Shown here: positions 1,437-31,955 of the stretch, piece after piece
Layout of the letters: every line of letters starts with the position of its first letter
Numbering within the stretch: the stretch's first letter is position 1
Source: Candidatus Woesearchaeota archaeon
GTDB lineage: Archaea; Nanobdellota; Nanobdellia; Woesearchaeales; WJKR01
Reading direction: 5' to 3'
DNA: 32,416 nt
Assembly (NCBI GenBank): GCA_014729015.1
Contig: WJKR01000025.1
Span: 1 to 32,416, forward strand
Translations under genes and position numbers: made by a program
The notes under the pieces: model-generated
Database searches by the model: none
What the model was told of the DNA's origin: nothing
The model's input: only the letters and a program-made list of their open reading frames with translations

Positions 1437-2420
1437 CTATTTTAATAGATTTGTGCTCGAGAAGCCTTCTATCCTTGGTATTAGGTATATTTTACCACCA
1501 TATTTCTTGACAGTTGTTGCTTCTATGCAGTTCTCTCCGTACTCAGCGCCGTTGGCATGTATATCTGGTTTTATATCTTCTACTATCTTCCTTGGGTCTG
1601 GCTCTGCAAAGCTGGTGATAAGATCGACTGCTGTGTACATGCTCAGCATACGTTGCCGTGCTTGTAGCGTGTTAACAGGTCTGTTTTTTCCTTTGTTCTT
1701 TCTGATGCTTTCATCCTCATTAAGTGCAACGATAAGCACATCCCCTTGTTTTTTTGCTTGTGAGAGAATGTAATCATGGCCTTCATGGAGGAGATCGAAG
1801 GCGCCGTTGAGCGTTACAATTTTTTTGCCTGCTGCTTTGAGCTCTGCTACTCGGTTTTTGATGGTTGTTCGTGATACTATTTTTTCTTCTTTAGCCTTAG
1901 CTACAAACGTCGCTGCTTGCAGGAGATCAGACGTGATGTACGCTGGACCTGCGGTTTTTACCTTTTGTAGTGTTACTTTTCCTTGTTCTGTGAGAAGGTG
2001 AATTGCTTTACATCCTATGTTGTTTGCTAGTTTTGTGTCCGATGGTTTGTCACCAATAATCCATGATTGTGTAAGGTCGATGTTATATTCTCTGGCAGCT
2101 TTTTGTGCGAGTGCAGTTTTTGGTTTTCTACATTTGCACACTTCTTCTGGTGAATGTGGGCAATGATATACTTTTTGTATGTTAACTTGTGATTGTTGTA
2201 GTGTATTAGTAAGGTGCTTATTGAACTGGTGCATTTGTTCTTCTGTGTAATATCCTCTTCCTATACCTGACTGGTTGGTAATAATGATTAATTCGAAGTT
2301 TTCTAGAATTTGCAGTCCTTCAATGACTTTGTGGTGAAGGGAGAACTCATCGACTTTGTAAGTGTAGCCACCATCTTTATTGAGTGTGCCATCTCTGTCA
2401 AGAAAGATTGCTGGATTCAT
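1437..2420 (-). CDS. gmhB: Bifunctional heptose-1,7-bisphosphate phosphatase (GmhB) / heptose-1-phosphate nucleotidyltransferase (HldC/RfaE-II)
   Basis: N-terminal HAD IIIA domain with FLDRDGTLN, TNQSGIGRG, CPH..C.CRKP and IGDK.SD. C-terminal nucleotidyltransferase domain with TLNGAFDLLHEGH, K..GD.LIVALN.D.S, KG..RP and EGFSST. Confidence 0.9.
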   Translation of the reverse strand: MNPAIFLDRDGTLNKDGGYTYKVDEFSLHHKVIEGLQILENFELIIITNQSGIGRGYYTEEQMHQFNKHLTNTLQQSQVNIQKVYHCPHSPEEVCKCRKPKTALAQKAAREYNIDLTQSWIIGDKPSDTKLANNIGCKAIHLLTEQGKVTLQKVKTAGPAYITSDLLQAATFVAKAKEEKIVSRTTIKNRVAELKAAGKKIVTLNGAFDLLHEGHDYILSQAKKQGDVLIVALNEDESIRKNKGKNRPVNTLQARQRMLSMYTAVDLITSFAEPDPRKIVEDIKPDIHANGAEYGENCIEATTVKKYGGKIYLIPRIEGFSSTNLLK

Positions 2421-3307
2421 TTTAGCTGTGGTAAATAATCTTTAATACCATCGATAAGCGAGTATTCTGCCTCAAACTTAAGGTGTTTTTTGGCTCGAGT
2501 AGTGTCTGCTTCTGTGTGGTGCTGGTATGTTTTCATATCGTAAGGGCTATCGATATATTCTGGTTGAAGATTTGTTCCAAGAGCTTTATTAATAGCAGCT
2601 ATTAGTTCGTTAAAACTTGTGCCGATACCTGTGCCTACGTTGTAGACTCCACTTTTTGCATCAAGTGCTTTTATGGTTGCTTTAACGACATCTTTGACAT
2701 AAATATGATCTCTTTTGTGTTCGCCGTGCTTGAACAATTTTGGTCTTTTACCTTGTCGCATCTGTTTTATGAGGTGGTATATCATCGATGCGGGTCTTCC
2801 TTTGTGTGTTTCTCCTGGTCCGAAGACATTGAAATACCGTAGACCAACGACCTGTAGGTCATCGTAGTGGTGGCTTGCCATCTCGTCTATGATGAGCTTT
2901 GATTCAGCGTATGCGGTGGTAATCTCTTTTGCTTGGTCTTCTTTTTGTGGTGCCGGACCGTTGCCGTATAAGCCTGCTGTTGACGCGTAGACAAGTTTTG
3001 CTTTTTTCTCTTTGGCAAGCTCCAGTATGTTTTGAAATCCTTTGACGTTGGCTTCGAGGAGTCTGGCATCCTCTTCGTAGCGTGGGTCTGTGATTGCTGC
3101 TATATGGAAGATTGCATCTATGTTTCCTTCAACAGTGAATGGTTTGCTGACGTCTTGCTCGATTGTTACCCCTTTGCATGTTTCGAGGTTGTCTTTGTGT
3201 CCGCTAGAGAAATCGTCGATAACAATGGTTTCGTGGTTTTGTCGTTCAAGTTCTTTCACAAGGTTGCTGCCGATAAACCCTGCTCCACCCGTAATGACGC
3301 ATTTCAT
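2417..3307 (-). CDS. hldD: ADP-L-glycero-D-manno-heptose 6-epimerase-like extended SDR
   Basis: Start revised to ATG 3307 (MKCVITGGAGFIGS). YAESK catalytic motif, HldD-like GLRYFNVFGPGETHKGRPASMI, RDHIYVKDV and YQHHTEAD. ATGA overlap with gmhB. Confidence 0.8.
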   Translation of the reverse strand: MKCVITGGAGFIGSNLVKELERQNHETIVIDDFSSGHKDNLETCKGVTIEQDVSKPFTVEGNIDAIFHIAAITDPRYEEDARLLEANVKGFQNILELAKEKKAKLVYASTAGLYGNGPAPQKEDQAKEITTAYAESKLIIDEMASHHYDDLQVVGLRYFNVFGPGETHKGRPASMIYHLIKQMRQGKRPKLFKHGEHKRDHIYVKDVVKATIKALDAKSGVYNVGTGIGTSFNELIAAINKALGTNLQPEYIDSPYDMKTYQHHTEADTTRAKKHLKFEAEYSLIDGIKDYLPQLK

Positions 3308-3338
3308 GTTATTATTAATGGTGCTTTTTTTATATGCA

Positions 3339-4016
3339 TTATGCATCGAGGTTCTGTTCGAAGGTTTGTGCTTTGACAAGATCCCTGCCTTTTCGACGCT
3401 TAAATTGGACGAGTCCTTGTAACTCTAGCTCATCCATATATCTATAGAATGATGCTTTTGAGCAGTATTTTTTCTGATCAACAACTACATCTCGTAAACT
3501 GATCTTTGTGAGATCTCCTTTGGCTACTTCGCTAAGAATTTGTTGTTTGATGATGTCTTTACGATTCCGCTCATAATTTTTGAGCAGGTCTTCTTTGAGT
3601 TTATCTGCAACTAGTTTCTGACTTTTTATGATTGGTTCTGGTTGTTGTATATTTTGTTCTTCTCTAACAGGTATTTCTTCAATTTTTTGCTCAGTCTCAG
3701 GCTGAGACTGGGTTGAGAAAACGCTTGATTCTTTTGTATTTAACTCTTTCAAGGCTTTTCCGACACCTTCGGCAACTGCTTCTTTGAGAATGAGTCTCAG
3801 CGTCTCAGGGTTGAGAATGGGTTGAGACTCGGATGATTTTCGCTCTTCTTCGAAAGAACGTCGGACATTTTCTTCTTTTTGCAACTGCTCCCTTACCCTC
3901 TGCAATTCTTCCTCGAACAAAGAAAACTTCGCGTTGAGCTCTGAGATGTCCTTTTTCACTTCCTGGAAGCTCTTTCTGATTCGCTTCCGATCGTTCCCCA
4001 ACAAATCCAATCTCAT
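3339..4016 (-). CDS. Hypothetical protein with N-terminal coiled coil and C-terminal wHTH-like DNA-binding domain
   Basis: Heptad-rich N-terminus, polar linker, then LTKISLRDVVVDQKKYCSKASFYRYMDELELQGLVQF, resembling a recognition helix plus wing. TTAAATA TATA box at 4046-4040. Confidence 0.7.
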   Translation of the reverse strand: MRLDLLGNDRKRIRKSFQEVKKDISELNAKFSLFEEELQRVREQLQKEENVRRSFEEERKSSESQPILNPETLRLILKEAVAEGVGKALKELNTKESSVFSTQSQPETEQKIEEIPVREEQNIQQPEPIIKSQKLVADKLKEDLLKNYERNRKDIIKQQILSEVAKGDLTKISLRDVVVDQKKYCSKASFYRYMDELELQGLVQFKRRKGRDLVKAQTFEQNLDA

Positions 4017-4151: not shown

Positions 4152-4194
4152 TGTCTTTTTTTCCCTCATCACAAGCAACTCTCTTTCAGAACGC

Positions 4195-4202
4195 TTATAA
4201 AT
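4195..4202 (+). promoter_or_regulatory. TATA box for a leaderless cysQ operon transcript
   Basis: TTATAAAT ends 21 nt before ATG 4224; no SD in between. Confidence 0.55.
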
Positions 4203-4223
4203 GGTGTTTTTTTCTCTAGGCAC

Positions 4224-5021
4224 ATGGAATTAGGGAAAGAAGCATCAATCGCACAAGAACTCGCACTCCAGGCAGCGGCTATCATCATGGGCTTTTACCA
4301 ACAAGATATGTCCGTAGCTGAGAAGGAAGATAAGAGCCCTATTACCGAAGCGGACCTTGCGGCGAACAAGCACATACTCAAAGGACTCAAGGAATTATTC
4401 CCAGATGATGCCATCCTCTCAGAAGAAGCGGCTGACGACAAGGCAAGGCTCGACAAGAGCCGGGTGTGGACAGTCGATCCTCTGGATGGCACCAAGGAGT
4501 TCATCAAGCGGAACGGCGAGTTCACCGTCAACATAGCCCTAGCTATCGATGGTGTGCCGGTCGTCGGGGTGGTGTGCTTACCGGCGAAGGACGAGTTCTA
4601 CGCGACTGATGGGGAGGATGTGTTCGTCATCAAGGATAGTGAACGCTTGCCCATCAAAGTCTCCGACAAGGATGACTTTCGGGAGATGACGCTGATGAAG
4701 AGCCGCTCGCACGCCTCAGAAGCACTCATAGCCATCGCCAAGAGGGCAGGCTTCAAGGATGAGAAACCTGCTGGCAGCGCCCTCAAAGGGTGCCTCGTCG
4801 CCTCAGGAGACGCGGACGTCTATATCAGGATGGGGAACACGCATGAATGGGATATCTGCGCGTTGGACGCAGTCATCAGGGCTGCAGGGGGCGTCGTGAC
4901 CGACCTGGAAGGCAATCCTTTAAAATACAACAAGGATGACACCCTCGTCAGGGGGTTCGTGGCTTCTAATGGTAAGAAGCACGAAGCATTGGTGGGGTTA
5001 ATACAAGATGGACAGGCTTGA
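4224..5021 (+). CDS. cysQ: 3'(2'),5'-bisphosphate nucleotidase CysQ (PAP phosphatase)
   Basis: [48 protein letters not shown] and EWD motifs. Confidence 0.93.
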
Positions 5022-5886
5022 AGCATTGGAGGCGCAAAGCGTCTACATATTGAGGGAGGCGTATGCCAAGTTCAAGAGCCTCGTCATGCTCTGGAGCATC
5101 GGGAAAGACAGTACGGTCATGCTCTGGATGGCGAGGAAGGCTTTCGGTGGCCACGTGCCTTTTCCTTTGGTGCATATCGATACGGGCTACAAGATACCAG
5201 AAATGATCAAGTATCGTGACAAGCTCGCCATAGAACTCGGCCTGAACATGGTCATCGGCCAGAACAAGCAAGCACTCAGAGAAAAAAACACCTTCCCCGA
5301 CGGCAAGCTCAACAGGATAGAGTGCTGCAAAGCACTCAAAACAACAGCGCTCAGAAACACGCTCTCAGGGGAATGGCCTCGGTACCGATTGGATCACCAC
5401 AAAAAGAAATACGTGCTCGACGAGGACAAAGAGCCGTACACAGGTGTCATCGTTGGCGTACGAGCAGACGAGGAAGGCACCAGAAGCAAAGAACGCTACT
5501 TCTCACCAAGAGACAAGAACAACGACTGGGACGTCGCAGACCAACCCCCAGAACTCTGGAACCAATTCAAGACCGACTTCGCGCCGAACACCCACCTCAG
5601 GATACACCCCTTACTCGATTGGACTGAGCTGGACATCTGGCTGTACATCCAGAAAGAGAATATACCTGTCACTTCACTGTACCTCGCAAAGAATGGGAAA
5701 CGCTATCGATCACTAGGCTGCTATCCCTGCACCAAACCAGTCGACTCAAACGCAGATACTATCGCAAAGATCGTTGAAGAACTCAGAAGTGGAAAGTTCT
5801 CTAACATCGCTGAACGATCAGGAAGAGATCAAGACAAAGAAGACGGTGGAGGACTCGAGACCTTACGCTTGGATGGATACATGTAA
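5008..5886 (+). CDS. cysD: Sulfate adenylyltransferase small subunit
   Basis: [72 protein letters not shown] and terminal GYM. Confidence 0.95.
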
Positions 5887-5887
5887 A

Positions 5888-6106
5888 ATGAGAAAAGAGA
5901 CGCACGCAAGAACACTCATAAAAAGTATTACCTGGAGGATTATCGCGACGATGGCTACCATCATTATCGTGTATCTTCTCACAGATAACTTTGGTATAGC
6001 AACAGCAGCAGGACTCGTCGAAGTAGTCACGAAACTCATCATCTACTACTTGCATGAAAGGGCATGGATACATGTCCCTTGGGGCATAAAGAAAAATGCG
6101 CGCTGA
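5888..6106 (+). CDS. DUF2061-family small membrane protein (72 aa)
   Basis: Start revised to ATG 5888. [18 protein letters not shown]...[14 protein letters not shown] is the DUF2061 pattern; two hydrophobic helices. Confidence 0.85.
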
Positions 6107-7883
6107 AAAAGAACAGATGAACATCGTACTCGTAGGTCATGTCGACCACGGTAAAAGCACAGTCGTCGGTAGATTGCTCGCTGACACCGACTCATTACCA
6201 AAAGGAAAACTCCAACAAGTCAAAGACTACTGCAAGAACAACGCAAAAACATTCGAATACGCGTTCCTCCTAGACGCATTGAAAGCCGAACAATCACAAG
6301 GCGTCACCATTGACAGCGCGAGATGCTTCTTCAAGTCAAAAAAACGGGAATACATCATCATCGACGCCCCAGGACACATAGAATTCCTCAAGAACATGAT
6401 CTCAGGAGCGGCACGAGCAGAAGCAGCAATTTTAGTCATCGACGCACAAGAAGGCATACAAGAAAACAGCAAGCGGCACGCGTACATGCTCTCCCTCCTC
6501 GGCATCAGGCAGGTGTTGGTGGCCGTGAACAAGATGGACCTCGTTGACTACTCGCAGGAGCGGTTCGACAAGGTCAAACAGGATTTCACCGGGTTCCTCG
6601 AGGGCATCGGCATCAAGCCTAGGGATTTCATCCCGGTGTCTGCTCGTGAGGGTGACAACGTCGCCTCCAATTCCAAGAATCTCTCATGGTTCAAGGGCGA
6701 CACCGTCCTGGAGGCGATAGACCATTTCGAGAAAGAGCCGTTGCCTGAGGACAAGGAGTTCCGCATGCCCATCCAGGGGGTGTACAAGTTCACCAACCTC
6801 GGCGACGACCGCCGCATCATCGGGGGGCGCGTCGAGACCGGCACGCTCAAGGCAGGGGACAAAGTGGTGTTCCTGCCTTCCTACAAGACCTCCACGGTCC
6901 AGTCCATAGAGGAGTTCAACGTCTCCGGCAAGAAATCCATCTCAGCCGGCGAGTCGACAGGTTTCACCTTGACTGAGCAGGTCTTCGCCACCCGCGGCGA
7001 TATCGCCTGCAAGGCCTCCGAACCACCTCCCTATGTCGGCCGGCTGTTCAAGGCGAGCATCTTCTGGATGGGCAAGAAGCCCCTGGAGCTGGACAAGGAG
7101 TACAAGCTCAAGCTCACCACCTCCGAGGCTAAGGTGCGCGTCACCGAGATTACGGGTGTCTTGAATTCGTCATCGTTGGAGAGCGCGAAGGCCCCCGAGG
7201 TCAAGCGCCACGAGGTGGCCGACTGCGTCATCGAATCCAAGGTTCCCTTGGCGTTCGACACGTTCAAGGCGATGAAATCTACTGGCCGGTTCGTCCTCGT
7301 GGACGAGTACGAGATCCGCGGCGGCGGCATCATCACCGAGCCCTTGGAGGACGAGGAGTCAGCCACGCGCGAGCAGATTTCGCTTCGCGAGCAGAAGTGG
7401 GACCCTGGCAGCATCGGCTTCAGGGAGCGCTCGTTGAAGTACGGCCAGTTCCCGACGCTCATGCTCATCACCGGGCCTTCCGGGGTGGACAAGAAATCCA
7501 TCGCGAAGCAACTCGAGAGAACGTTGTTCGACCAGGGACGCTCGCCCTACTTCCTCGGCATCGGTAATTTGTTGCGTGGCCTGGATGCGGATATCGACAA
7601 GGAAAGACGACAGGAGCATATCAGGCGTCTCGGCGAAGTCTCTCACTTGCTGTTGGATGCCGGCTTGATCGTCGTGGCGACCGCTAGTGATTTGACTGAG
7701 CCCGAGATAAGGTTGCTGCGGACCATCATCAACCAGGATTTCATCATCACCGCCAACGTCGGAGACTTCACCAATGGTAATGGTGTTATTGACGTCTTCC
7801 TCGACGAGAACGACGGCGTCGAGGCGAACGCGAACAAACTCTTGGGCAAGTTGTCGTCGAACAACAACATCTTCAGCAGGTAG
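6096..7883 (+). CDS. cysN: Sulfate adenylyltransferase large (GTPase) subunit with degenerate C-terminal APS-kinase domain
   Basis: [27 protein letters not shown] and TGRFVLVD...GGGII. The C-terminal CysC-like domain has GPSGVDKK in place of the P-loop and LGIGN in place of LDGDN. Confidence 0.92.
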
Positions 7884-7889
7884 GGAATC

Positions 7890-8462
7890 ATGGCTGACAA
7901 CATCACCTGGCACCACGGCAAGGTCACGCGGGAAGACCGCGTCAAACTCTTTGGGAAGAAGAACAAGGTGTTCTGGTTCACCGGACTGTCAGGATCGGGG
8001 AAGTCCACCATCGCGGTCGAGTTCGAGAAGCGGCTGCACGAACAGGGACATCCTACATTTATTCTTGATGGGGATAACGTCCGCCACGGCCTGAACAAGA
8101 ACCTCGGCTTCTCTCCCGAGGACCGTGAGGAGAACATCCGACGGGTGGCCGAGGTGGTCAAGCTGTTCTACGACGCTGGTGTGACTGTGTTGGTATGCTT
8201 CATCAGCCCTTATAGGAATGATCGTGAGTACGCGCGGTCATTGATAGGCGATGATTTCGTGGAAGTGTACGTCAAGTGTTCCTTGGAGACGTGCGAGGAG
8301 CGCGATCCTAAGGGCTTGTACAAAAAGGTCCGGAAGGGTGAGATAAGAGGATTCACAGGGGTAGACGCGCCGTATGAGGAGCCGACTTGCCCTGAGGTCA
8401 CAATCGTGAGTGATATTGTTGGTGTGGATGAATCTGTCTCTGCATGTATGGATTTGTTGTGA
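7890..8462 (+). CDS. cysC: Adenylylsulfate (APS) kinase
   Basis: WFTGLSGSGKSTIA, LDGDNVRHGLN, DREENIRR, FISPY, RDPKGLY and FTGVDAPYE. Confidence 0.96.
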   Translation: MADNITWHHGKVTREDRVKLFGKKNKVFWFTGLSGSGKSTIAVEFEKRLHEQGHPTFILDGDNVRHGLNKNLGFSPEDREENIRRVAEVVKLFYDAGVTVLVCFISPYRNDREYARSLIGDDFVEVYVKCSLETCEERDPKGLYKKVRKGEIRGFTGVDAPYEEPTCPEVTIVSDIVGVDESVSACMDLL

Positions 8463-8494
8463 AGAAGTGTATCATGGGTTTTTGGCGATTCATG

Positions 8495-9590
8495 TTAATA
8501 GTACTTGTATTTTTTGAGGTTCTTGTTGAGTGAACGGGCAGTCTTGATATTTTCTTTCCTGTAGAGTTCGGTGATTTTTCTCCTGGTTTTCTTGTCCATT
8601 CTATATTTGCCTGATATTTTCCTCAGCATGAGTTTGTCGTCGAGGAATAGCAGGGTCTTGGTGCATAGTCTTCTCAATTGTTGGTCGAAGAAGTTTTTAT
8701 ATCGGTAGTATTCGGCCTTTTTGAAGTCCCGGTTGCTATTGTTTCCGATGAGTTTTTTTTTGTAACTGGGATGAGATATTGAACTTCTCGAGGATTTGTC
8801 GGAACCATAATAGTAACATGGCGGAAAGCGATGTTAGCCATGATAGGGGGCTCAAGGGGGATTCGTTTAACTTGCTTGTTAGGAATGTGTTGAGGAATCT
8901 ATGGATGGAAATTGTTATCTTTGACAATCCTTGTTTTTGTTTTTTCTTATCAGGTGTGGGGGGTTCTGAAATCCCCAAAAATTTGCATAGTTGTTTCAGA
9001 ACCTTTGCAGGTTCGCTTTTAAACTCTTCGAATACATAGACGAAAACATTTTCTTTCCCGAATACGTGTTGGTAGTGGGTTATGAATGTGTGGTAGAAGA
9101 GCTTGCTCCTCAAGGCAACGCTCCTCTTGTTTGGTGAGAACAATAGTTTTGTTGAGGGAAGTCTTCCTCCTCTTTTGATATACTGGTTGTAGTAAGATTC
9201 GAGCATGGATGTTTGGTTTCTTATCCCGATTATGATTCGTGTGTCAAAGTCCTTGAAGCTTTCTTTCAATCGCTCTGCTACATAGAGGGAAGAAGGCATC
9301 AGTCCGCCGTTTCCGAAAGATAATCCTTCATAGCTCACCCCATATATCTTCTTCTCAGTGGGATGTTTCCTTATTATGTTTCTTACTGTATCTCTTGATT
9401 TCTTCGGGGAGAACGTGATATCTGGCTCGTTCTGGAGGTTCATCTGTAGTCTTGTCAGTTGCTGGACGTGCTTCCTTGAGCTTTTTCCCAGGAACTCTAT
9501 ATCCTGATGTGTTGAGAAGAACTCATTCTGGAGCCATGTCGTGGCGGTCTTTGGAAATCCTATATTGATGAATATCTTTTTCTTTTTCAT
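8495..9590 (-). pseudogene. PAPS-dependent sulfotransferase split by a +1 frameshift in an A9 tract (8753-8761)
   Basis: 5'-PSB motif NIGFPKTATTWLQ, SYEGLS and RNQ...ESYY.QY. Deleting one A joins ORF 8736..9590 to the 8495..8677 frame, giving 364 aa that ends ITELYRKENIKTARSLNKNLKKYKYY, a typical sulfotransferase C-terminal helix. Confidence 0.82.
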
Positions 9591-22541: not shown

Positions 22542-23116
22542 TGCGTGAACGCCTCGTCTATCATGCCGCACCACGTGTGTATGAGTGTGATGTGGACCTC
22601 TTGGATCCGTTTCGTCTCCTGGGATGGCACCACGACGGCGTGCCCGTATTCCTTGAGCTTGCCGCCGTCCTTGCCCAGCAACAAGATGATGTTCATGCCT
22701 TTCTCCTTGGCGGCTTCCGCAGCCCTCAAGACGTTCTCCGAGTTCCCGCTCGTGCTGATGCCCACGAGCACGTCGCCCTCAGCGCCATAAGCCTCCACTT
22801 GGAGCTTGAACACGTTGTCGTAGCCGTAATCATTCCCGCAGGCGGTGAGGATGCTCGTGTCCGTCGTCAACGCCAGCCCCGGCAGCTTCCGGCGCTCCTT
22901 CTCGAACCGCACCACGAGCTCGCCTGCGAAGTGCTGCGCGTCCGCCGCACTGCCGCCGTTGCCGCACACCAGGACCTTCTTGCCGTCCTTGAGCGCCTGG
23001 ATGAGGATGTCGCCGGCCTCGGCGGATTTCTTGATGAACCCCTCGTCCTGGGCCAGCTCTCCCTTGACCTTCCTTGAGGAATCCAGCTCCTCCTTGATGA
23101 ATACGTCGTGCTTCAT
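22538..23116 (-). CDS. gmhA: Sedoheptulose-7-phosphate isomerase
   Basis: Start revised to ATG 23116 (MKHDVF, 192 aa). CGNGGSAADAQHFAGELVVRF, NDYGY, ISTSGNS.N and RIQEVH. Confidence 0.96.
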   Translation of the reverse strand: MKHDVFIKEELDSSRKVKGELAQDEGFIKKSAEAGDILIQALKDGKKVLVCGNGGSAADAQHFAGELVVRFEKERRKLPGLALTTDTSILTACGNDYGYDNVFKLQVEAYGAEGDVLVGISTSGNSENVLRAAEAAKEKGMNIILLLGKDGGKLKEYGHAVVVPSQETKRIQEVHITLIHTWCGMIDEAFTQ

Positions 23117-24159: not shown

Positions 24160-24491
24160 TTTTTCTTCTTTCGTTGGAGCGCTATTTGCCGCACAAGCCT
24201 TGTAATGTCTTGTTGTTGCTGCTCCACTTTGACGTAGAGTCGGAATTGGAGGTAGAAGAGTACGAGTACCGTTACGATGATGACGAGGTCTATCGCGCTG
24301 CTGAATCCTGTCTTGTTGGCCACTGACGCGACCAGTTCGGGGAAGAGGGCTATGGCTATCGCTCCTAACCATATGATGCTCCAGAAGATGAGTTCTCCTA
24401 GTGGTACTGCTCGGTCTCTTCTTCGCAGAATGAGCCTGCTCAGCGCGAAGATGCTGAACAGAATGATGATTATTTGTAGTACGTGTACCAT
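24156..24491 (-). CDS. DUF2304-family membrane protein
   Basis: Three TM helices, W..IW, FP...A...G and a C-terminal coiled coil QQQDITRLVRQIAL. SD GGTGA upstream; directly follows a DPM1-like GT2. Confidence 0.85.
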   Translation of the reverse strand: MVHVLQIIIILFSIFALSRLILRRRDRAVPLGELIFWSIIWLGAIAIALFPELVASVANKTGFSSAIDLVIIVTVLVLFYLQFRLYVKVEQQQQDITRLVRQIALQRKKKK

Positions 24492-24498
24492 GGGTGTT

Positions 24499-25173
24499 TC
24501 ACCTTTTGAGTTTTCCTAAAATCATTTTTGTCATGATGTTGATGGCGTTGCTGTTGCCTTGTCCTTTAGCAAGTGTTTCGTCACTGTAGGTAATGGTGTT
24601 TGGGATTTCTTTGTACTTAAGTTTATTATCTGCTATTTGTTCGATGATTTCTGAAGCGTGTTCCATCCCATCGCTTTTTATCTTTATCTTGTTTGCTGCT
24701 TTTCTGGAGAGTGCTCTGAAGCCGTTGTGTGAATCGGTTAATTTTAGTCCGTAGAAGATACGCAGGGATAAGGCTCCTCCTTTGAGAATAACTCTTCTCA
24801 TGAACGGCGCATTATTAGTGTTTTTGAGGAATCGTGATCCTAGGCAGACGTCTGCTTCGCCTTTTTCAATAGGTTTGATGAACTTCGGTATATCTTTTGC
24901 TTTGTGTTGTCCATCTGCGTCAAATGTGATAATGATATTAGCTCCTTGCTTAAGTGCATAACTAATCCCTGTTTGTAGTGCTGCTCCTTGGCCGCGGTTG
25001 ATGATGTGTCTGAGCACGATAGCTCCAGCTTCTGTTGCTTCTTCAGATGTTTTGTCTTTGCTGCCATCATCTACTACAATAATATGTTGATAATTATGTT
25101 TATGTAGATTTTTAACGACTTTTCCGACACTGCCTTGTTCGTTGTACGCGGCTATTACTATCGCTATGTCCAT
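24499..25173 (-). CDS. DPM1-like polyprenyl-phosphate glycosyltransferase (AglK-like Dol-P-sugar synthase)
   Basis: IAAYNE, VVDDGSKD.T, H.INRGQGAALQTG, TFDADGQH, GSRF and TDSHNGFRA. Confidence 0.9.
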   Translation of the reverse strand: MDIAIVIAAYNEQGSVGKVVKNLHKHNYQHIIVVDDGSKDKTSEEATEAGAIVLRHIINRGQGAALQTGISYALKQGANIIITFDADGQHKAKDIPKFIKPIEKGEADVCLGSRFLKNTNNAPFMRRVILKGGALSLRIFYGLKLTDSHNGFRALSRKAANKIKIKSDGMEHASEIIEQIADNKLKYKEIPNTITYSDETLAKGQGNSNAINIMTKMILGKLKR

Positions 25174-25212
25174 ATGCTAAAGAACAAAAATCGCTTTTTT
25201 AAGCTTTATGAA

Positions 25213-28080
25213 TCACCAGTTGACTTTCCAAACGATAATCCGGTCGCCAGTGATGGGACTTCTTTCATCACTAAATTTCTCGAAATGCTTTGTATGTGCT
25301 CCTTCGAGGAAGAAGAGCCTGGTGAACATGCTCGTTGCCAGTTCGCTAGAAGCGATGACTGCCTTGTAGCTGCTTCCTTGTTGTACGAGGAACAGCTCGA
25401 AGTCTAGCCCTGGATTCTCGAATCTGGTTGTTTCTAGATTATTATTTTTAATGGTGACTGCTTTGAGGGTGAGCGTGTTCTCGCCGACCCGTTGTCCTGT
25501 TTGTCGGTTGTACGCGCCGATGCTGGCGATCGTGTTTTCCGGGTTTTCGAGGTCGACGACCACTGTTTCTAGCCTGATCGTTTGTCCTTGTTGGTTGCCG
25601 AGGTTCACGTTCTGGTTGCACGTGACGGTGTCGTTGTCGTCTTGGCAGCTGATTGCGTTTCTGGTGAGGTATTGCGGCCAGGGGCTGATCCACGCGTTCG
25701 CCGCTTGTTCGTTGGCGAGGCTGATTACTTGGTAATATAGTTGTCCTGCTGCTTTTGTTTCTATGTCGAAGAGTTCTTCGATGATAGGGGTTGCGACGTC
25801 CGGTGTTTCTTTTCGGAGCACGTTGTACGCGTACGCTTTCCTGAAGTCCCAGTTGCCGAAGTGTCCCCACACGCTCGCTTTACCGATCATGTCTGAACTA
25901 GTAATAAAATAGTTTTCTGGCGGTTCGCAATGGGTGAGTCTTGTGACGTCTTCAGCTTCTTCTTGTGTGAGTCCTTGTTCTTCCAAGTACGCAGTTGCTG
26001 CTTCTTGGTCTTCTATGAGGATTATCTCTCCCATGATTGCTCTTGCCTGCAAGGTGGTTTCTGGTGTTATGGCTTCTCCGTCTCCTTGGACGTGTTCTGC
26101 TAGGGTGTCGAATCCTTTTCTTGAACCGCAGTCAAGCATCCTCAATATGCCGACTGCTTCTTCCTCGTTGTTCGTGCTGAGCGCTCTGCCCACCCAGTGG
26201 GCCATGGGCGTGTTCTGGCTGGTGCCGTCGAACGTGACTGCTCTGTCGCCGATGGCTTTGAACCAGTGTCCGAAGTCCCACCAGCTGTTGATGATTGCGT
26301 CTGGTGCTGCTTCTTCATTGATTTTTGTTAGTGAACTCCACCAAGCGTCGTTCATGCTGGGTATTTCATGAAGTGCTGCTTGTTTTCCTGCATTGATGGG
26401 TTTGATGAGAATGAGTAATGCGATGATGATGAGTCCTGCTTTGATCCATGCTTGGTCTATTTCGAAGTTTTTCTCGCTCCAGGTGATGACGAGCTTGTAG
26501 AGTTGTCCGATGAGGATGCCTAACGCGACAGCGTAGGCTGGTACGAGGACGAGGATAAATCGTACGCCTTGTGTGCTGGCGTAGATGGTGCCTGCGAACC
26601 AGACGACGAGGAACAATGCGTATTTGATGTCTATGTCTCGTTGGTCTTTGAGGAAGAACAGGATGCCTGTAGCGACCGGTATTAGCAGTAATGCGAGGAA
26701 CACGTAGGGGTTGCCTCTGAGCAATGGTTTGGTGATGAGGATGAGGTAGAGGAATGCGCCGCCGCCGAGGATGGCCCAGTCTTTGTTCTTGAATTCCTTG
26801 ATGGTGATGAGGCTGAGGAGGAGTCCGAGGCAGGCTAAGTAGAAGTAGGCGCTGCCGCCTATCTGGTTGACGATGCTGGACAGTGATGCCCTGTTGAGCT
26901 CTGCGACGGTGGTGAAGACGTTCGGCCAGAGGTCTATTTTTGCCGCGTTCTGGATGCTGGCGAATTTAACTGCTCCTAATGGTCCGTTGATGAATCGGGA
27001 GAAAGATGAGAATAATGATACGAATATGCCGCTCGCTACCAACACTCCTAGTATGCTTCTGCCGGCGTTCTTCACTTCTGGTGCTGTGAATATTCTTTTC
27101 ACGTCTTTTGTTTGCAGCCATGATTTGATGATGCGGAATCCGAGGTATGCGATGATGGTGATGAGCATGAAGTCGAAGATGTACCACCAACCACTCCAAA
27201 ACTTGCTGTAGATGCCGAGGAAGAGGCCGGTGAGTCCTGAGTAGATAAGTTTCTTCTTGAGGTCTTTGGCGTCGAATGCTTCGATGAACATCCAGAGAAT
27301 CAGTAAGGGAAAGGTGACGTTGTAGCTGTCGGTGTCGGCGAATCCTGCTGCGGTTCTGCCGAGGAAGGTGGAGTGGACGGCGACGATTGTGCCGGCGATG
27401 AACCCTCCGAGGTTGCCTGCTTTTTTCCTCGTGATAAAGAATGCGGGGATGACGGCTAGTGAAGAAATGATGACTGGCATCCAGAAGAAGACGTTGAAGA
27501 GCTCTGCGTCTTTGTTGAAGAATCTCACAATCTTGTAGATCATCGCTGAGAATCTTGTGTGGTAGTCTGTTTCTGTTTCTGCTCTTCCTATTGGCGCGAG
27601 CATATGGTTGTTTATTTTGACACCGTCTATTTCTACGTCTGCGCCGTAGCCATGATCAAGAACGTTTTTTGTGTGTCTGTAGTAGAAGTAAGGGTCTATC
27701 GCCAAGAGGTAGGTCTGCCCGTCGTCTTTTTGGAGCCGTTCCCTGATGTATTGTCCTTGGGTCTTTGCTTGTTCTGCGATTTCCGTTTCTTGTTGCTTGA
27801 TGACTTGCGTGAGCTGTTCGTTGACGAGCGCTTGTTTCCGTTCTGGTGGCAGGTTGGGGTATTGTTGGTTTATCCCCGTGGTGATTTGGTTTTTGAGGTT
27901 GGTGATGATGCTGTTCTCTGCCCATTGGTCTGTGATGGGGAGTGTTGCTGGGTAGCTGCGGTAGGTGATGGAGAGTCCTGTGCTGATGAGGATGAGCAGG
28001 ATGATGAGTAGGACGCGGAGGTGTTGGTTGGTGATGCGTTGCAAGAATGCTCGTGGTGTCTTTGTTGTTTGTCGTGCCAC
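25213..28080 (-). CDS. aglB: Oligosaccharyltransferase AglB (STT3 family)
   Basis: IDPYFYYR, AGFADTD, TVAELN (TIxE-like), WWDFGHW, TFDG and DMIGK; about 13 TM helices. GTG start after GGAG. Confidence 0.96.
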   Translation of the reverse strand: MARQTTKTPRAFLQRITNQHLRVLLIILLILISTGLSITYRSYPATLPITDQWAENSIITNLKNQITTGINQQYPNLPPERKQALVNEQLTQVIKQQETEIAEQAKTQGQYIRERLQKDDGQTYLLAIDPYFYYRHTKNVLDHGYGADVEIDGVKINNHMLAPIGRAETETDYHTRFSAMIYKIVRFFNKDAELFNVFFWMPVIISSLAVIPAFFITRKKAGNLGGFIAGTIVAVHSTFLGRTAAGFADTDSYNVTFPLLILWMFIEAFDAKDLKKKLIYSGLTGLFLGIYSKFWSGWWYIFDFMLITIIAYLGFRIIKSWLQTKDVKRIFTAPEVKNAGRSILGVLVASGIFVSLFSSFSRFINGPLGAVKFASIQNAAKIDLWPNVFTTVAELNRASLSSIVNQIGGSAYFYLACLGLLLSLITIKEFKNKDWAILGGGAFLYLILITKPLLRGNPYVFLALLLIPVATGILFFLKDQRDIDIKYALFLVVWFAGTIYASTQGVRFILVLVPAYAVALGILIGQLYKLVITWSEKNFEIDQAWIKAGLIIIALLILIKPINAGKQAALHEIPSMNDAWWSSLTKINEEAAPDAIINSWWDFGHWFKAIGDRAVTFDGTSQNTPMAHWVGRALSTNNEEEAVGILRMLDCGSRKGFDTLAEHVQGDGEAITPETTLQARAIMGEIILIEDQEAATAYLEEQGLTQEEAEDVTRLTHCEPPENYFITSSDMIGKASVWGHFGNWDFRKAYAYNVLRKETPDVATPIIEELFDIETKAAGQLYYQVISLANEQAANAWISPWPQYLTRNAISCQDDNDTVTCNQNVNLGNQQGQTIRLETVVVDLENPENTIASIGAYNRQTGQRVGENTLTLKAVTIKNNNLETTRFENPGLDFELFLVQQGSSYKAVIASSELATSMFTRLFFLEGAHTKHFEKFSDERSPITGDRIIVWKVNW

Positions 28081-28331: not shown

Positions 28332-31300
28332 ATGAAACAACTACTATTCTCCATCCTGCTGGTCATCATGCTTATCATGACCGTACAAGCAGCGAGCGCA
28401 GCCGTGACCTACGCGCACTGGCAGCCCAACGAAACAGCAACCATTACCATCAACGAAGGCGACACCGCAGCATTCGACTGGTACGCGCAGACGAACTGGT
28501 ACAACCTGGACGTAGACGTCCAGCTCAACGACGGAACGGACACGCTCGTGACCTATGTCGCAGGCCTGCAACCGAACAACTACGCCGGCGGCACCGTCGA
28601 AGTGGACCAAGACGATTACCAAGCACCAGGCACCTACACCGTCTCCGTCTGGGCGACCGACATCCTCGGCTACCAGGACACGCACACCATCGAATTGGTG
28701 GTCGAAGGACGAACACCCGAAGACAACGACCTCATCGACGTCGAAGTCACCGCAGAACCGACCGATGGCGAAGCACCATTAGAAGTGAGCTTCACCTGCA
28801 CCGCTGTCGGCGGCGACGCCCCCATCAGTTATGCATGGGCGTTCGGCGATGACACGACGAGCGATGAACAGAACACGACGCACACCTACACCGAACCAGG
28901 AGCGTACACGGCGATGTGCACGGCCACCGACAACGACGGTGACTTGATGAGCGAACTCGTCGTCATCACCGTCGGACTCGTCAACAAAGCGCCGGAAATG
29001 GAACCTATCGACGACCAATACGTCGATGAGACAACGACATTCACCTATGACTTGCAGGTCTCGGACCCTGACAACACGTTAGACGAGCTGATTTGCTATG
29101 ACGCGGAGTTCATGAAGGTCGACACGAAGCACACGAAAGGGGCCGACGATATCAAATACATCCCCGACTGGGCAGTCCTCGACGGCTGCACCATCGTCGG
29201 AGAAGCACCAGCAGTCGAATCCGACGAGGAGTATTACGTCCGAGTCGGCGTCAAGGACCCGGAAGGGCTGTTCGACGAAGAAGACTTCTACATCACCGTG
29301 CGACAACGCAACCAGCCGCCGACCATAGAGGACGTCGCAGACCTGACCATAAGCGAGGGGACGAACATCACCGTGCCCTTCACCGTGACGGATGCAGACG
29401 CGTTGGACACGTTGACATGCAGTGTCACGTCAGGGACGGAACTACCTGCCTGGCTGACCCTCGAAGACTGCGGCCTGGCCGGTACGGCGCCGCAAGTGAA
29501 TGGTAGCGACACGAGCACGATAAGCATCACCGTCACCGATGATAAAAATGCAAGTGACACGATGGCATTCACGATCACGGTCGTCGACGCGGGCAACGGC
29601 CCGACAGCCGACTTCACATGGTCACCGACGAACCCACTCGTCGCCGAAGCCGTGCAGTTCACCGACACCTCCTCTGATGATGGCAACATCGTCAGCCATG
29701 ACTGGACGTTCGGCGACGGCGCCCGCAGCGACCAGCATCACCCGACGCACAGCTACGCGAGTGGTGGAAGCTATCAGGTGACGCTCGTCGTGACCGACGA
29801 CGACGGCCTGACAGGCATCACGCAACAGACCATCACAGTGACCGACTACGACTTTTCCAGCATCACGGTAAGCGCAGACCCGACGACAGGTACCGCGCCG
29901 CTCGACGTAAACTTCACCTGCTCGGTCATCGGCGGCGACGCACCCCTGACATATTCATGGGAGTTTGATGACGGAACCTTCTCTACAGACCAGAATCCGA
30001 CGCACACCTATCACGCTGTCGGGACGTACACCGCCTCTTGCCTGGCAAAGGATGTGGACGGGGACACCATTTCAGGCCCCGTCGTCGTGTACGTTGAAGA
30101 GACGACGGCCACGAACCATCCGCCCATCATGCAACCGCTTCCTGACGACGAAGTGTACGAAGGAGAGCATTACACCAAGCAGTTGCTGGTGAGCGACCCT
30201 GACGACGACCCAGTGACTTGCTACTCAGCGGCAGACCTCGGCTACGGCATCTCACTGCCGGCATGGCTATCCTTGGACAAGGACAACTGCGTCCTGTCAG
30301 GCACCGCGCCTGAAGTGACTGAAGACAAGGTCTACTTGGTGGAGGTCGGTGTCGAGGATGACGGCGGGCTGACCGACTCTGAATACTATTATCTGACGGT
30401 GAAGGACCTCCCGGCAAATAACGTGCCGCCGACAGCGGACTTCGCTTGGGACCCGGCCGCACCATCGGTCGGGGAGACAGTCACCTTCACCGCGACGGCG
30501 ACGGATATCGACGGGAATATCGTCCTGTATGAGTGGGACTTGGACGACGACGGCTCTTACGAGCTGTCAGGGCCGACCACCGACACCGTCTTGAGGAGTT
30601 ATCCTTCCGCAGGCGATGTTGCCGTACGGCTCCGCGTCACTGATGACGACGGCGCCGCCGACTCGGTCGCGAAGATTATCACCATCACCGACGTCTCGGA
30701 CCATGACTTCACGGACATCGCAGTCGCGGCGGACCCGATCAGCGGTTTTGCGCCGTTGGCGGTCAATTTCACCTGTTCGGTCATCGGCGGCGACGCCCCC
30801 ATCAGTTATGCATGGGCGTTCGGCGATGACACGACGAGCGATGAACAGAACACGACGCACACGTACCGGACGACCGGCCCGTTCACCGCGACGTGCACCG
30901 CACGGGACGAGGACGGCGACGCCATACATGGCAGCGTTGACATAGCGGTCGCGGCGCTGCCGACTAACGATGCGCCCGTCGCCTCGTTCTCTTGGTTGCC
31001 CGTCGTTCCCGAGACGAACGAATCAGTGACCTTTAATGCGAACGCCTCGACTGACAACGACGGGAGCATCGTGTTGTACGAATGGGATTTCGACGGTGAC
31101 GGCGTCTGGGACGCGACTGGGGTCGCGGTGACGATTGCGTACGCCGCGCCAGGGGCGTATGACGTCACGTTGCGCGTGACTGACGACAACGGCGCTCAGG
31201 ATACGGAGACGAAGGAGGTCGCGGTCGTCAAGCCGTCTGCATTGCCGGTGGCGGAAGCAGGCCCTGACCTCACCGTGTACGTCAACACGCTGGTCAAGAT

Positions 31301-31955
31301 TGATGGTAGCGCTTCGTATGATCCTGACGGCGGCGACATCGTTTGGTATCATTGGGATTTCGGCAATGGTGAGATTGCTGCGGGCGTGCACGCGCAGGGC
31401 AGCGTCGTGTACAACCAGCTCGGCACGTACACGGTGACGTTGACGGTGACTGATGACGAGGATGACACGGTGGACGATACGGTGGTCGTGACGGTGATTG
31501 ACGAGCCGTACGTCGCGAAGTGCGCTGATGGCAGGGACAATGATGGTGACGGCTTGGTGGACATGGCCGACCCTGGTTGCTCGTCGCCTGATGATGCGAG
31601 CGAGGTCAACCTGGTGAATAGCGGTCCCGAGAAGGGGTTGAAGGTCGTTTCTATCAGCTCATATAGTGCCGAAGGCGCTGCTGTCGCGTTGCCTGGCGAC
31701 GTCTTGGTGGTGAAGACCGTGCTGGAGAACGTCTTGCGCCAGCCGTTGGAGGACTTGCGTATCGGCTTCGCTGTGCCTGAGCTGGGCGTGCAGCAGAAGA
31801 GCAGCCAGTTCGACGTGCAGCCTGGTAGGCGCGTGACGAAGCAGTTGCTCGTGTACTTGCCGTGGGACGCTGCTCTTGGCGAGTATTATACGGAGTTCAC
31901 CGTGGCGAACGATGAGCTGCGCAGGTCGTTGCATCGTTCGTTGACCATTAAGTGA
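28332..31955 (+). CDS. Large secreted PKD / cadherin-like repeat surface protein
   Basis: Start revised to ATG 28332 after SD GGAGG. Signal peptide MKQLLFSILLVIMLIMTVQAASA; about 7 PKD domains (W.FGD, Y..PG.Y) and 3 cadherin/dystroglycan-like domains (N..P, D.D, P.W); a CADGRDNDGDGLVDMADPGC Ca-binding-like motif; 10 N-X-S/T sequons. Confidence 0.9.
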   Translation: MKQLLFSILLVIMLIMTVQAASAAVTYAHWQPNETATITINEGDTAAFDWYAQTNWYNLDVDVQLNDGTDTLVTYVAGLQPNNYAGGTVEVDQDDYQAPGTYTVSVWATDILGYQDTHTIELVVEGRTPEDNDLIDVEVTAEPTDGEAPLEVSFTCTAVGGDAPISYAWAFGDDTTSDEQNTTHTYTEPGAYTAMCTATDNDGDLMSELVVITVGLVNKAPEMEPIDDQYVDETTTFTYDLQVSDPDNTLDELICYDAEFMKVDTKHTKGADDIKYIPDWAVLDGCTIVGEAPAVESDEEYYVRVGVKDPEGLFDEEDFYITVRQRNQPPTIEDVADLTISEGTNITVPFTVTDADALDTLTCSVTSGTELPAWLTLEDCGLAGTAPQVNGSDTSTISITVTDDKNASDTMAFTITVVDAGNGPTADFTWSPTNPLVAEAVQFTDTSSDDGNIVSHDWTFGDGARSDQHHPTHSYASGGSYQVTLVVTDDDGLTGITQQTITVTDYDFSSITVSADPTTGTAPLDVNFTCSVIGGDAPLTYSWEFDDGTFSTDQNPTHTYHAVGTYTASCLAKDVDGDTISGPVVVYVEETTATNHPPIMQPLPDDEVYEGEHYTKQLLVSDPDDDPVTCYSAADLGYGISLPAWLSLDKDNCVLSGTAPEVTEDKVYLVEVGVEDDGGLTDSEYYYLTVKDLPANNVPPTADFAWDPAAPSVGETVTFTATATDIDGNIVLYEWDLDDDGSYELSGPTTDTVLRSYPSAGDVAVRLRVTDDDGAADSVAKIITITDVSDHDFTDIAVAADPISGFAPLAVNFTCSVIGGDAPISYAWAFGDDTTSDEQNTTHTYRTTGPFTATCTARDEDGDAIHGSVDIAVAALPTNDAPVASFSWLPVVPETNESVTFNANASTDNDGSIVLYEWDFDGDGVWDATGVAVTIAYAAPGAYDVTLRVTDDNGAQDTETKEVAVVKPSALPVAEAGPDLTVYVNTLVKIDGSASYDPDGGDIVWYHWDFGNGEIAAGVHAQGSVVYNQLGTYTVTLTVTDDEDDTVDDTVVVTVIDEPYVAKCADGRDNDGDGLVDMADPGCSSPDDASEVNLVNSGPEKGLKVVSISSYSAEGAAVALPGDVLVVKTVLENVLRQPLEDLRIGFAVPELGVQQKSSQFDVQPGRRVTKQLLVYLPWDAALGEYYTEFTVANDELRRSLHRSLTIK
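28807..28885 (+). repeat. 79-bp perfect intragenic direct repeat, copy 1
   Basis: Identical to 30784-30862; encodes GGDAPISYAWAFGDDTTSDEQNTTHT. Confidence 0.92.
30784..30862 (+). repeat. 79-bp perfect intragenic direct repeat, copy 2
   Basis: Identical to 28807-28885; the offset of 1977 nt is in frame. Confidence 0.92.

Follow-up and report, generated by a model that had tools for sequence, protein, structure and literature searches.

What does an archaeon do with genes for ADP-L-glycero-D-manno-heptose, a nucleotide sugar that in bacteria leads to lipopolysaccharide (LPS)? The question is raised by contig WJKR01000025.1 of a Candidatus Woesearchaeota archaeon (assembly GCA_014729015.1), where such genes lie beside aglB, coding for the oligosaccharyltransferase of N-glycosylation, and beside genes for sulfation by 3′-phosphoadenosine-5′-phosphosulfate (PAPS). 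The stretch analyzed, hereafter the window, is this whole contig (C11; 32,416 nucleotides), one of the 70 contigs of a genome of 838,599 bases. A previous reading of its letters (hereafter the sequence-only reading) had proposed that heptose chemistry and PAPS sulfation serve a glycan transferred by AglB and not LPS. This is the best-supported reading of the locus, given the synteny, the co-occurrence of GT9 (a glycosyltransferase family) and hldA, two comparable islands in genomes G262 and G220, and the lack of rival routes among those we looked for; O-methylation, the composition of the glycan, and a role in host attachment or virus evasion are what we infer beyond it. We judge it rather probable that the window represents a variable N-glycosylation island linked to aglB in a small archaeon of the DPANN type, with, as its predicted product, an N-glycan carrying heptose, sulfate, and possibly methyl groups.

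Gene calls were based on Pfam and NCBIfam scans of 30 open reading frames (ORFs) of the window, which bore out nearly all of the gene content previously listed. The core of the locus is aglB (25213-28080, minus strand; PF02516, 164.6 bits), a gene of the STT3 family and the sole STT3 match in the genome (G000). Its product shares 58-65% identity with AglB from two genomes of the same genus, G006 and G262, and the stretches WWDFG, DPYF, ADTD, and TVAE, which we take to be AglB/STT3 motifs, are readable in its translation. The genes that follow on the minus strand are separated by gaps or overlaps of at most 44 bases and come in the order aglB-GT2-DUF2304-GT2-gmhA-hldA-FkbM, with the gene of a putative β-propeller at the end. 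The first GT2 (24499-25173; PF00535, 100.4 bits) resembles the polyprenyl- or dolichyl-phosphate-sugar synthases GacI, PpgS, and AglJ, its top NCBIfam matches being PpgS (206 bits for a cut-off of 370) and AglJ (112 bits), both under their cut-offs. The DUF2304 gene (24156-24491; PF10066, 86.2 bits) codes for a small membrane protein like the GT2 partners GacJ and Rv3632, and the second GT2 (23164-24159; PF00535, 94.1 bits) has a C-terminal membrane segment, with homologs in the aglB islands of G006, G262, and locus L098. The co-oriented run of aglB, the GT2s, DUF2304, gmhA, and hldA stands as first described, but its FkbM-type methyltransferase gene does not: it lies in two frames (20846-21569), split at an A8 tract (21140-21147), the C-terminal piece matching PF05050 with 35.7 bits and the N-terminal piece with an E value of only 0.2. 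The split may stem from a sequencing error, a genuine break, or phase variation. An intact FkbM-type gene is found on the plus strand (19077-19928; PF05050, 70 bits).

Two of the heptose genes belong to this run, and each overlaps its neighbors by 4 bases: gmhA, for sedoheptulose-7-phosphate isomerase (22538-23116, minus strand; SIS_2, 95.7 bits; TIGR00441, 201.3 for a cut-off of 209.45; NF010546, 222 for a cut-off of 276), and hldA, for D-glycero-β-D-manno-heptose-7-phosphate kinase (21576-22541, minus strand; TIGR02198, 353.8 for a cut-off of 345). The others are hldD (2417-3307, minus strand; TIGR02197, 278.2 for a cut-off of 274.6) and a gmhB-hldC fusion (1437-2420, minus strand), whose halves match NF006506 (GmhB; 157.9 for a cut-off of 178) and TIGR02199 (RfaE domain II; 141.3 for a cut-off of 181.5). 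All five activities leading to ADP-L-glycero-D-manno-heptose (isomerase, 7-phosphate kinase, 7-phosphatase, adenylyltransferase, and 6-epimerase) have best-match candidates in the window. The same gmhB-hldC fusion is read through in seven other loci of the phylum (L033, L039, L043, L044, L046, L065, and L068). A transketolase is encoded on contig C30, so that a supply of sedoheptulose-7-phosphate is plausible. The nucleotide carried by the heptose is less clear-cut. The HldC domain terminates in R-I-E-G-F-S-S-T, within the last 12 residues of the protein, and the position of its arginine is occupied by another residue, mostly L or F, in 27 of 31 relatives from the phylum, the other four (L056, L064, L067, and L070) also having arginine. 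Enzymes of the ‘STTR5’ type also accept CTP and UTP, according to the accessible text of a commentary (PMC11461863); if the HldC of the window is of this type, it may also make CDP- or UDP-heptose. The presence of HldD, as judged from its sequence, argues for the ADP-linked form.

The candidate heptosyltransferase is the GT9 glycosyltransferase (17864-18907, minus strand; PF01075, 96.1 bits for a cut-off of 22), the sole PF01075 match of the genome. Sequence matches in the Protein Data Bank (PDB) include 3tov (1.6e-10) and WaaC (4.4e-7), with the stretches K-R-Y-P and D-T-G-L-G-H-L aligned, but the scores against the equivalog families are far under the cut-offs (TIGR02201, 76.3 for 170.2; TIGR02193, 67.6 for 185.3; TIGR02195, 56.7 for 134.6). 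Because of these WaaC/F/Q scores and of a low identity to its relatives (see below), its donor has to be deduced from context, and it is the co-occurrence with hldA and the adjacency of the two genes at other loci that make it a candidate user of heptose. A profile search of genome contigs with the GT9 alignment returned five loci, and the closest ortholog in the genome collection, that of L098 (43% identity), is co-oriented behind aglB-GT2-GT2-GT2. The Pfam and NCBIfam matches agree with the gmhA, heptose kinase, gmhB-hldC, hldD, and GT9 calls of the sequence-only reading, with GmhA, GmhB, and HldC under equivalog cut-offs. LPS as the product was rejected: the genome carries an archaeal 16S rRNA fragment (contig C66; RF01959, 668 bits), and no Kdo transferase (PF04413) was found in this 92% complete genome.

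The association of heptose genes with aglB can be followed across the phylum, as the sequence-only reading had proposed, in a sample of 401 genomes, with tallies including the unpublished G244 and G359, though no conclusion depends on these two alone. Homologs of hldA (E ≤ 1e-20) occur in 95 of these genomes and GT9 genes (PF01075) in 125; 87 have both, 8 only hldA, 38 only GT9, and 268 neither. We fetched up to 19.9 kb around the hldA match in 40 of the 94 other hldA-positive genomes, drawn from about the 60 highest-scoring listed matches and omitting the two unpublished genomes and several others, some of them with short contigs, and scanned these loci by tblastn with the proteins of the window (E ≤ 1e-6). 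GmhB/HldC was matched in 33 of the 40 loci, GT9 in 29, the first GT2 (24499-25173) in 28, GmhA in 25, HldD in 23, AglB in 17, and DUF2304 in 16. The expectation by chance is about one aglB neighbor in 40, since 20 kb is at most ~3% of genomes of 0.6-2.1 Mb. Fifteen of the 17 AglB matches score at least 266 bits; the remaining ones are cut by the edge of the stretch (L041) or weak and in three pieces (L042). Fifteen loci, from eight families in two orders, share a single co-oriented order, aglB-GT2-DUF2304-GT9-gmhA...hldC-hldA-GT9, and conservation of the linkage is therewith observed, as are the linkage itself and, by homology, the identities of the genes. PAPS genes (CysD, CysN, and CysC) were matched in none of the 40 loci, a weak CysQ (47 bits) in one, and a sulfotransferase in one.

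Outside this sample, a record titled uncultured Saccharibacteria bacterium (L102) has hldD, hldC, gmhA, hldA, and GT9 side by side, with FkbM nearby. LPS synthesis would not be expected in the Saccharibacteria lineage. The set of heptose and GT9 genes may move among ultrasmall bacteria and archaea.

The sulfation genes of the window form, by their sequences, what is read as an operon for PAPS supply and recycling (4224-8462), all on the plus strand: cysQ (4224-5021; TIGR01331, 235.4 for a cut-off of 228.8), cysD (5008-5886; NF003587, 342 for 195), cysN (6096-7883; TIGR02034, 346.2 for 336.1), and cysC (7890-8462; TIGR00455, 246.2 for 138.7). The PAPS synthesis and recycling genes reported from the sequence are therefore all over NCBIfam cut-offs. 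Of the four sulfotransferases reported along with them, three exceed Pfam cut-offs: those at 8736-9590 (minus strand; PF00685, 43.8 bits) and 9587-10567 (minus strand; PF00685, 55.8 bits) and the one fused to a second domain (see below). The fourth (14684-15553, plus strand) is under the cut-off (PF00685, 20.8 bits for 22), yet it is a clear paralog of the one at 8736-9590 (BLASTP, 1e-16 over nearly the full length). The window carries all the sulfotransferases found in the genome, including its three PF13469 matches, as well as its sole AglB and sole GT9. Sulfate assimilation was rejected as the purpose of cysDNC: no cysH-type reductase was found in the 92% complete genome, where cysD is the sole gene of the PAPS_reduct family. 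With no cysH found and all sulfotransferases in the window, PAPS is left without visible use other than sulfotransfer.

The CysN protein ends in a partial APS-kinase-like piece (residues 455-530, covering profile positions 4-81 of 152; 46.5 bits), and a complete stand-alone cysC directly follows cysN, the same arrangement being found in G262 and G220. This tail may be a regulatory or a vestigial domain.

The cysQDNC operon is 58-91% identical to the one in the aglB island of G262, where a single contig carries PKD-aglB-GT2-DUF2304-GT2-deacetylase-GT4-PIG-L-sulfotransferase-cysQDNC, the deacetylase being a polysaccharide deacetylase. G220, a one-contig genome of another family, has within 34 kb a GT9, GT4s, cysDNCQ, MBOAT, a sulfotransferase, a flippase, a GT4, aglB, and an hldA-like kinase, and G084 has aglB-GT2-DUF2304 followed at some distance by cysC. 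Among the 401 genomes, 43 have cysC homologs, and we fetched 20 stretches around cysC from 18 of the 42 other positive genomes. Sulfotransferase genes adjoin cys genes in five of the 20 (L078, L081, L084, L085, and L087), and aglB is near cysC in L089, L097, and, weakly, L082. The best-supported reading, considering G262 and G220, is that sulfation belongs to the same type of aglB island.

Several observations weigh against a heptose-bearing, sulfated N-glycan. At the level of the enzymes, three of the five heptose proteins (GmhA, GmhB, and HldC) are just under the NCBIfam equivalog cut-offs, the GT9 shares just 21-28% identity with its counterparts in most relatives and stays well short of the WaaC/F/Q cut-offs, and one FkbM gene is broken. 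At the level of the phylum, the genomes are kin, so that the counts overstate independence, though identities between the proteins are low (36-48%); GT9 comes without an hldA match in 38 genomes; 23 of the 40 hldA loci have no aglB within ~10 kb; and hldA and cysC are unassociated (12 genomes with both; odds ratio 1.3). Within the genus, neither of the two other genomes has hldA or GT9.

Some of these observations would suit a glycan that is not bound to protein, which is the main rival and, in our view, an unlikely one. The heptose/sulfate glycan would then be a dolichyl-phosphate surface glycolipid or a released short exopolysaccharide, with AglB using a simpler glycan, for example, the product of the GT2-DUF2304 pair. 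This would be in line with the bacterial GT2 and DUF2304 proteins, whose product is a separate lipid-linked donor, with the hldA loci lacking aglB nearby, and with the sulfation, GT4, and GT9 genes being separate from the aglB run and divided among several transcription units of either strand. Against it, a Wzy_C polymerase, an O-oligosaccharyltransferase, an ABC exporter, and GT-C enzymes other than AglB were not found in the window or in the genome. The co-oriented order from aglB to GT9, gmhA, and hldA is kept in eight families, and the window has a flippase of the type paired with AglB in haloarchaea, as far as the accessible text of PMC11980604 tells. This flippase, of the MOP family (Wzx/AglR type; 15559-16992, minus strand), matches PF13440 with 165.8 bits and the NCBIfam ‘MOP flippase family’ with 107.8 bits, under its cut-off.

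The start of the glycan bears on the same choice. In the 92% complete genome, no primer of the PF00953 (WecA/AglH) or PF02397 (WbaP) type was found, nor any GT-C enzyme besides AglB (a second STT3, PMT_2/PF13231, and Wzy_C/PF04932 were sought). Hence, the GT2-DUF2304 pair is the best candidate for starting the glycan on dolichyl phosphate and is predicted to prime the lipid-linked glycan. Priming of the N-glycan by this pair would match AglK of Methanococcus voltae, which reportedly plays such a part. The features of an agl cluster, namely AglB, a candidate GT2 for charging the carrier, clustered glycosyltransferases, and a MOP flippase, are all present, and besides the GT2-DUF2304 pair, there are five further glycosyltransferase genes in the window. 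These include the second GT2 and the GT9 and, between the flippase and the fusion gene or next to the GT9, a GT4 of the GT-B fold (12464-13591, minus strand; PF00534, 49.2 bits), a Glyco_trans_1_2 glycosyltransferase also of the GT-B fold (13588-14604, minus strand; PF13524, 106.9 bits), and a GT2_4/GT17-like glycosyltransferase (16989-17849, minus strand; PF13704, 31.3 bits).

A different objection to the heptose-bearing N-glycan is that the heptose module could be a recent, perhaps nonfunctional, acquisition, or an artifact of assembly or binning, only a sulfated glycan like that of the congener G262 being made. As hldA and GT9 were found in neither same-genus genome, the genus can do without the heptose part, which may be a recent gain. 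The GC content along the contig swings from 40% to 60%, the genome being at ~55%, and the hldD/gmhB-hldC pair (~40%) looks like a cassette insertion, since relative to G006 it sits exactly between the gene of a conserved 225-residue protein (unk225; 3339-4016, minus strand; no family match) and the downstream spacer. Two genes are broken, FkbM and an epimerase at the left edge. The five heptose genes and the GT9 are, on the other side, intact open frames with family motifs, and gmhA and hldA are knit into the aglB run by their 4-base overlaps. Swings in GC are, moreover, as expected along a mosaic island. As to artifacts, both ends of the contig match single contigs of the congeners, and the genome has an estimated completeness of 92.27% and contamination of 0.08%. 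We regard this explanation as improbable.

A chimeric or bacterial contig was rejected, as far as can be told: besides the archaeal 16S rRNA, the frame made up of PKD-aglB, unk225, and the left-flank ORF recurs on single contigs of both same-genus genomes, so that both ends and the aglB core are accounted for. In G006, PKD-aglB lies ~29 kb from the homologs of unk225 (47% identity) and of the left-end ORF of the window, and DNA matches extend over window positions 521-686, 1270-1427, and 3408-3598; in G220, the unk225 homolog is near aglB. The contig is archaeal, without obvious chimera. Because the flanks and aglB match the contigs of G262 and G006, the frame can be regarded as conserved and the interior as a replaceable island, with unk225 at its border. 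The three congeners have three different gene sets between the same flanks.

The left edge of the window (921-1271, plus strand, with 1-920) contains the C-terminal part of a gene for an NAD-dependent sugar epimerase/dehydratase (PF01370, profile positions 155-240); an intact N-terminal part is missing, and the piece is probably left over from a previous cassette at the edge of the island. The island of G006 (contig C19, ~6-34 kb; L074/L075/L103) has genes for NeuB, a CMP-type cytidylyltransferase, a UDP-GlcNAc 2-epimerase, and two DegT aminotransferases, all under cut-offs, which by sequence look like a nonulosonic acid set. A second group of genes there, for a fusion of a nucleotidyltransferase with GmhB, a GmhA-like isomerase, and a GHMP kinase (best match HddA), likewise all under cut-offs, looks like a route to GDP-D-glycero-D-manno-heptose. 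Heptose may therefore recur in the genus by a second pathway.

The gene that brings heptose and sulfate closest is a fusion (10741-12480, plus strand) of a PAPS-type sulfotransferase (~10750-11382; PF13469, 56.1 bits, residues 4-209) with a putative heptosyltransferase-like domain of the GT-B fold (~11647-12441). The protein has 579 residues, of which the C-terminal domain makes up 270. The sulfotransferase half has a paralog with 44% identity in the enzyme at 9587-10567, whose gene is divergently transcribed from the fusion gene across a spacer of 173 bases; the two genes lie in stretches of different GC content. The C-terminal domain finds nothing usable in Pfam, even at E values up to 1, and a word-based search at near lengths with the fusion protein matched only itself. 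An exhaustive HMMER search of 1.84 billion representatives (E ≤ 1e-3) found 61 relatives of the domain, mostly stand-alone proteins of ~250-340 residues with a few shorter fragments, the protein of the window being the sole fused one. PF01075 is matched by 9 of 41 aligned members of this family (best E 9e-6). The family and the GT9 alignment match weakly in hhalign (E 5e-4, probability 30%), and a sequence profile search of the PDB is weak too (WaaF, 0.042). In the ESM Atlas, the domain is placed beside GT9 clusters (feature score 0.93; structure TM 0.68). A model built with AlphaFold (AF2) on the family alignment has a mean pLDDT of 91, and its best matches among solved structures are all heptosyltransferases: TibC (E 1.6e-7, TMq 0.53) and the GT9 3tov, WaaF, and WaaC (TMq 0.51-0.57). 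Because the sequence and profile searches are weak, the likeness rests mainly on structure and on the nine PF01075 matches. We read the domain, from its model, as a distant and compact relative of ADP-heptose transferases.

Nothing else in the sequence hints as directly at sulfate and heptose being joined on one molecule as this fusion does. We propose, tentatively, that it attaches a heptose to the dolichol-linked glycan and, in a single coupled reaction, sulfates this heptose, the N-glycans of these DPANN archaea then displaying sulfated L,D-heptose. If this were true, it would be a protein-bound counterpart of the inner core of LPS, with heparin-like charge, swapped among close relatives as a cassette (heptose and sulfate here, only sulfate in G262, GDP-heptose-like and nonulosonic acid genes in G006); the selective pressure would be viruses or hosts, and archaeal NDP-heptose would have its first assigned use.

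The resemblance to TibC also raises the possibility that the GT9 and the GT9-like domain heptosylate serine or threonine directly in the cytoplasm, in the manner of TibC/Aah, with no lipid carrier or AglB. TibC is the best solved-structure match of the fused domain, and a large secreted repeat protein is encoded beside aglB. The TM score to TibC (0.53) is, nonetheless, similar to those to WaaC and 3tov (0.56-0.57), the best alignments of the canonical GT9 are those with 3tov and WaaC, and the genes conserved alongside encode a lipid-sugar synthase, a flippase, and AglB. Secreted proteins of archaea are exported in an unfolded state, which sits poorly with glycosylation beforehand in the cytoplasm. 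On balance, direct O-heptosylation seems quite improbable, a shade more so than the acquisition or artifact discussed above. Least probable is that NDP-heptose is a soluble metabolite for signaling or a small-molecule precursor: the accessible text of the commentary PMC11461863 leaves its archaeal use open, but of the 95 genomes with hldA, 87 have GT9 as well, hldA is linked to aglB, and natural-product genes were not seen in the scans of the window.

The heptose-bearing, sulfated N-glycan can be given a working scheme, in which the enzymatic steps, the order of the sugars, the residue that is sulfated or methylated, and the protein-bound end product are predictions from the genes. GmhA, HldA, GmhB-HldC, and HldD would convert sedoheptulose-7-phosphate into ADP-L-glycero-D-manno-heptose, while CysDN and CysC would make PAPS and CysQ would clear its by-product, 3′-phosphoadenosine-5′-phosphate. 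The GT2-DUF2304 pair would charge dolichyl phosphate with the first sugar. The chain would be extended on the cytoplasmic face by the second GT2, the two GT4-type enzymes, the GT2_4 enzyme, the GT9, and the GT9-like half of the fusion, at least one of the added residues being heptose, and it would be decorated by up to four sulfotransferases and an FkbM methyltransferase. Since ADP-heptose, PAPS, and S-adenosylmethionine are cytoplasmic, extension, sulfation, and methylation must precede flipping, as is the case in the pathway of Halobacterium salinarum (PMC11980604). The MOP flippase would then turn the oligosaccharide outward, and AglB would move the product to the asparagine of N-X-S/T sequons on surface proteins.

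Which proteins would receive the glycan? The gene divergent from aglB codes for a secreted protein of PKD/Ig repeats (28332-31955, plus strand; PKD_4, 325 bits in seven stretches) with an N-terminus like a signal peptide, and its homologs adjoin aglB in G006 and G262. It had been described as a sequon-rich surface protein. We rejected this description, because its 1208 residues contain 10 N-X-S/T sequons when its own composition predicts 7.1, which puts it at the 81st percentile among the 338 ORFs of the genome that have 300 residues or more. The genome mean is 0.66 sequons per 100 residues, and secreted-looking ORFs on other contigs have 5-8. These lie on contigs C33 (13060-15633; 71 sequons in 857 residues), C55 (3695-7387, minus strand; 70 in 1230), C29 (6206-8029; 36 in 607), C27 (60680-62188; 37 in 502), and C12 (7622-9742, minus strand; 35 in 706). 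AglB thus has far better candidate clients than its PKD neighbor, and these five ORFs, by their sequences, are likely its main ones.

The last gene of the aglB run (19932-20828, minus strand) codes for a protein of 298 residues with no Pfam match over cut-off. Its Atlas model (pTM 0.87) has TM scores of 0.72-0.80 to unnamed and DUF4915 clusters, and many of the neighboring Atlas clusters carry phage-protein labels. Its likeness to a DUF4915-like β-propeller, seen in the model, is a lead only.

If the predictions hold, the locus matters in several ways. With the heptose pathway co-oriented behind aglB and with GT9 here and in at least 15 related genomes, the purpose of archaeal NDP-heptose becomes testable, and the PAPS supply, the four sulfotransferases, and the fusion predict a sulfated heptose-bearing glycan. 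The locus also offers compact enzymes for making sulfated heptosides. Because three congeners carry three gene sets between the same flanks, it can be seen as a quickly changing determinant of the cell surface in organisms living attached to other cells.

How does the island compare with known systems? The closest by role is the pathway of Halobacterium salinarum, in which Agl28/25/26/27 act as glycosyltransferases on dolichyl phosphate, Agl29 is the flippase, Agl30 and Agl31 are sulfotransferases, and AglB transfers the product (PMC11980604, from the text accessible). The two share clustered genes, more than one sulfotransferase, a flippase, and transfer by AglB, and the product in Halobacterium is a strongly anionic N-glycan, to which ours is likened by role. 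That pathway, as described there, has no heptose and no GT9, whereas the window has genes of both kinds, and the text on the Halobacterium cluster, in which the term PAPS does not occur, names no PAPS genes, whereas the island of the window holds a cysDNC-cysQ operon. The likeness to Thermoplasma acidophilum is at the level of the glycan: its N-glycan contains D-glycero-D-galacto-heptose and 6-C-sulfo-fucose (PMC11407970 and PMC12448462, both in part), that is, heptose and a sulfur-bearing sugar, as predicted from the genes of the window. The heptose is, however, another isomer, and the sulfur is a C-S sulfonate instead of a PAPS-derived sulfate ester. Titles in the reference list of PMC11407970 mention dolichyl oligosaccharides that are sulfated and transiently methylated. 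Functional archaeal NDP-heptose enzymes were reported by Tang et al. (Science 2024), according to the accessible text of the commentary PMC11461863, which asks what they are for. In light of these publications on the Thermoplasma heptose N-glycan, on sulfation by Agl30/31, and on archaeal NDP-heptose enzymes, as far as their texts were accessible, the statement of the sequence-only reading that no characterized equivalent is known was too strong. A full-text literature search, which covers few subscription journals and whose matches were judged in part by title or abstract, found no paper linking ADP-heptose or heptosyltransferases with AglB, DPANN, or Woesearchaeota.

Among bacterial systems, the GT2 of the window belongs to the same subfamily as GacI of Streptococcus pyogenes and PpgS of Mycobacterium tuberculosis and, like these, is directly followed by a DUF2304 gene. 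GacJ and Rv3632 are DUF2304 proteins that stimulate their GT2 partner, a polyprenyl-phosphate-HexNAc synthase (bioRxiv 10.1101/180810, from the text accessible). There, a GT-C enzyme on the outside takes its sugar from the lipid-P-HexNAc, which acts as donor in the making of wall polysaccharide and not as primer, and this counts against the role proposed here; as AglB is the only GT-C enzyme found in the genome, the product of the pair in the window more likely primes the N-glycan. TibC/Aah of Escherichia coli (PDB 4rb4 and 4rap), which use ADP-heptose, provide the best structural match of the fused domain, but the identity is 12%, the TM score 0.53, and the target more likely lipid-linked. 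The bacterial ADP-heptose/LPS route shares the same five enzyme families, with hldA and hldD over the equivalog cut-offs and a GT9 with nucleotide-sugar-binding stretches. It differs in that the window is archaeal and has a GmhB-HldC instead of an HldA-HldC fusion, with a GT9 far from WaaC/F/Q in score, and in that the heptose genes have as neighbors not a Kdo transferase, of which none was found, but aglB, a dolichyl-phosphate-sugar synthase, and a flippase. In conclusion, the locus is real and coherent, and the interpretation we favor is a variant of the glycosylation clusters linked to aglB in archaea, to which the window adds features of its own: heptose and PAPS modules in one island, a fusion of a sulfotransferase with a heptosyltransferase-like domain, and three different islands in three congeners.

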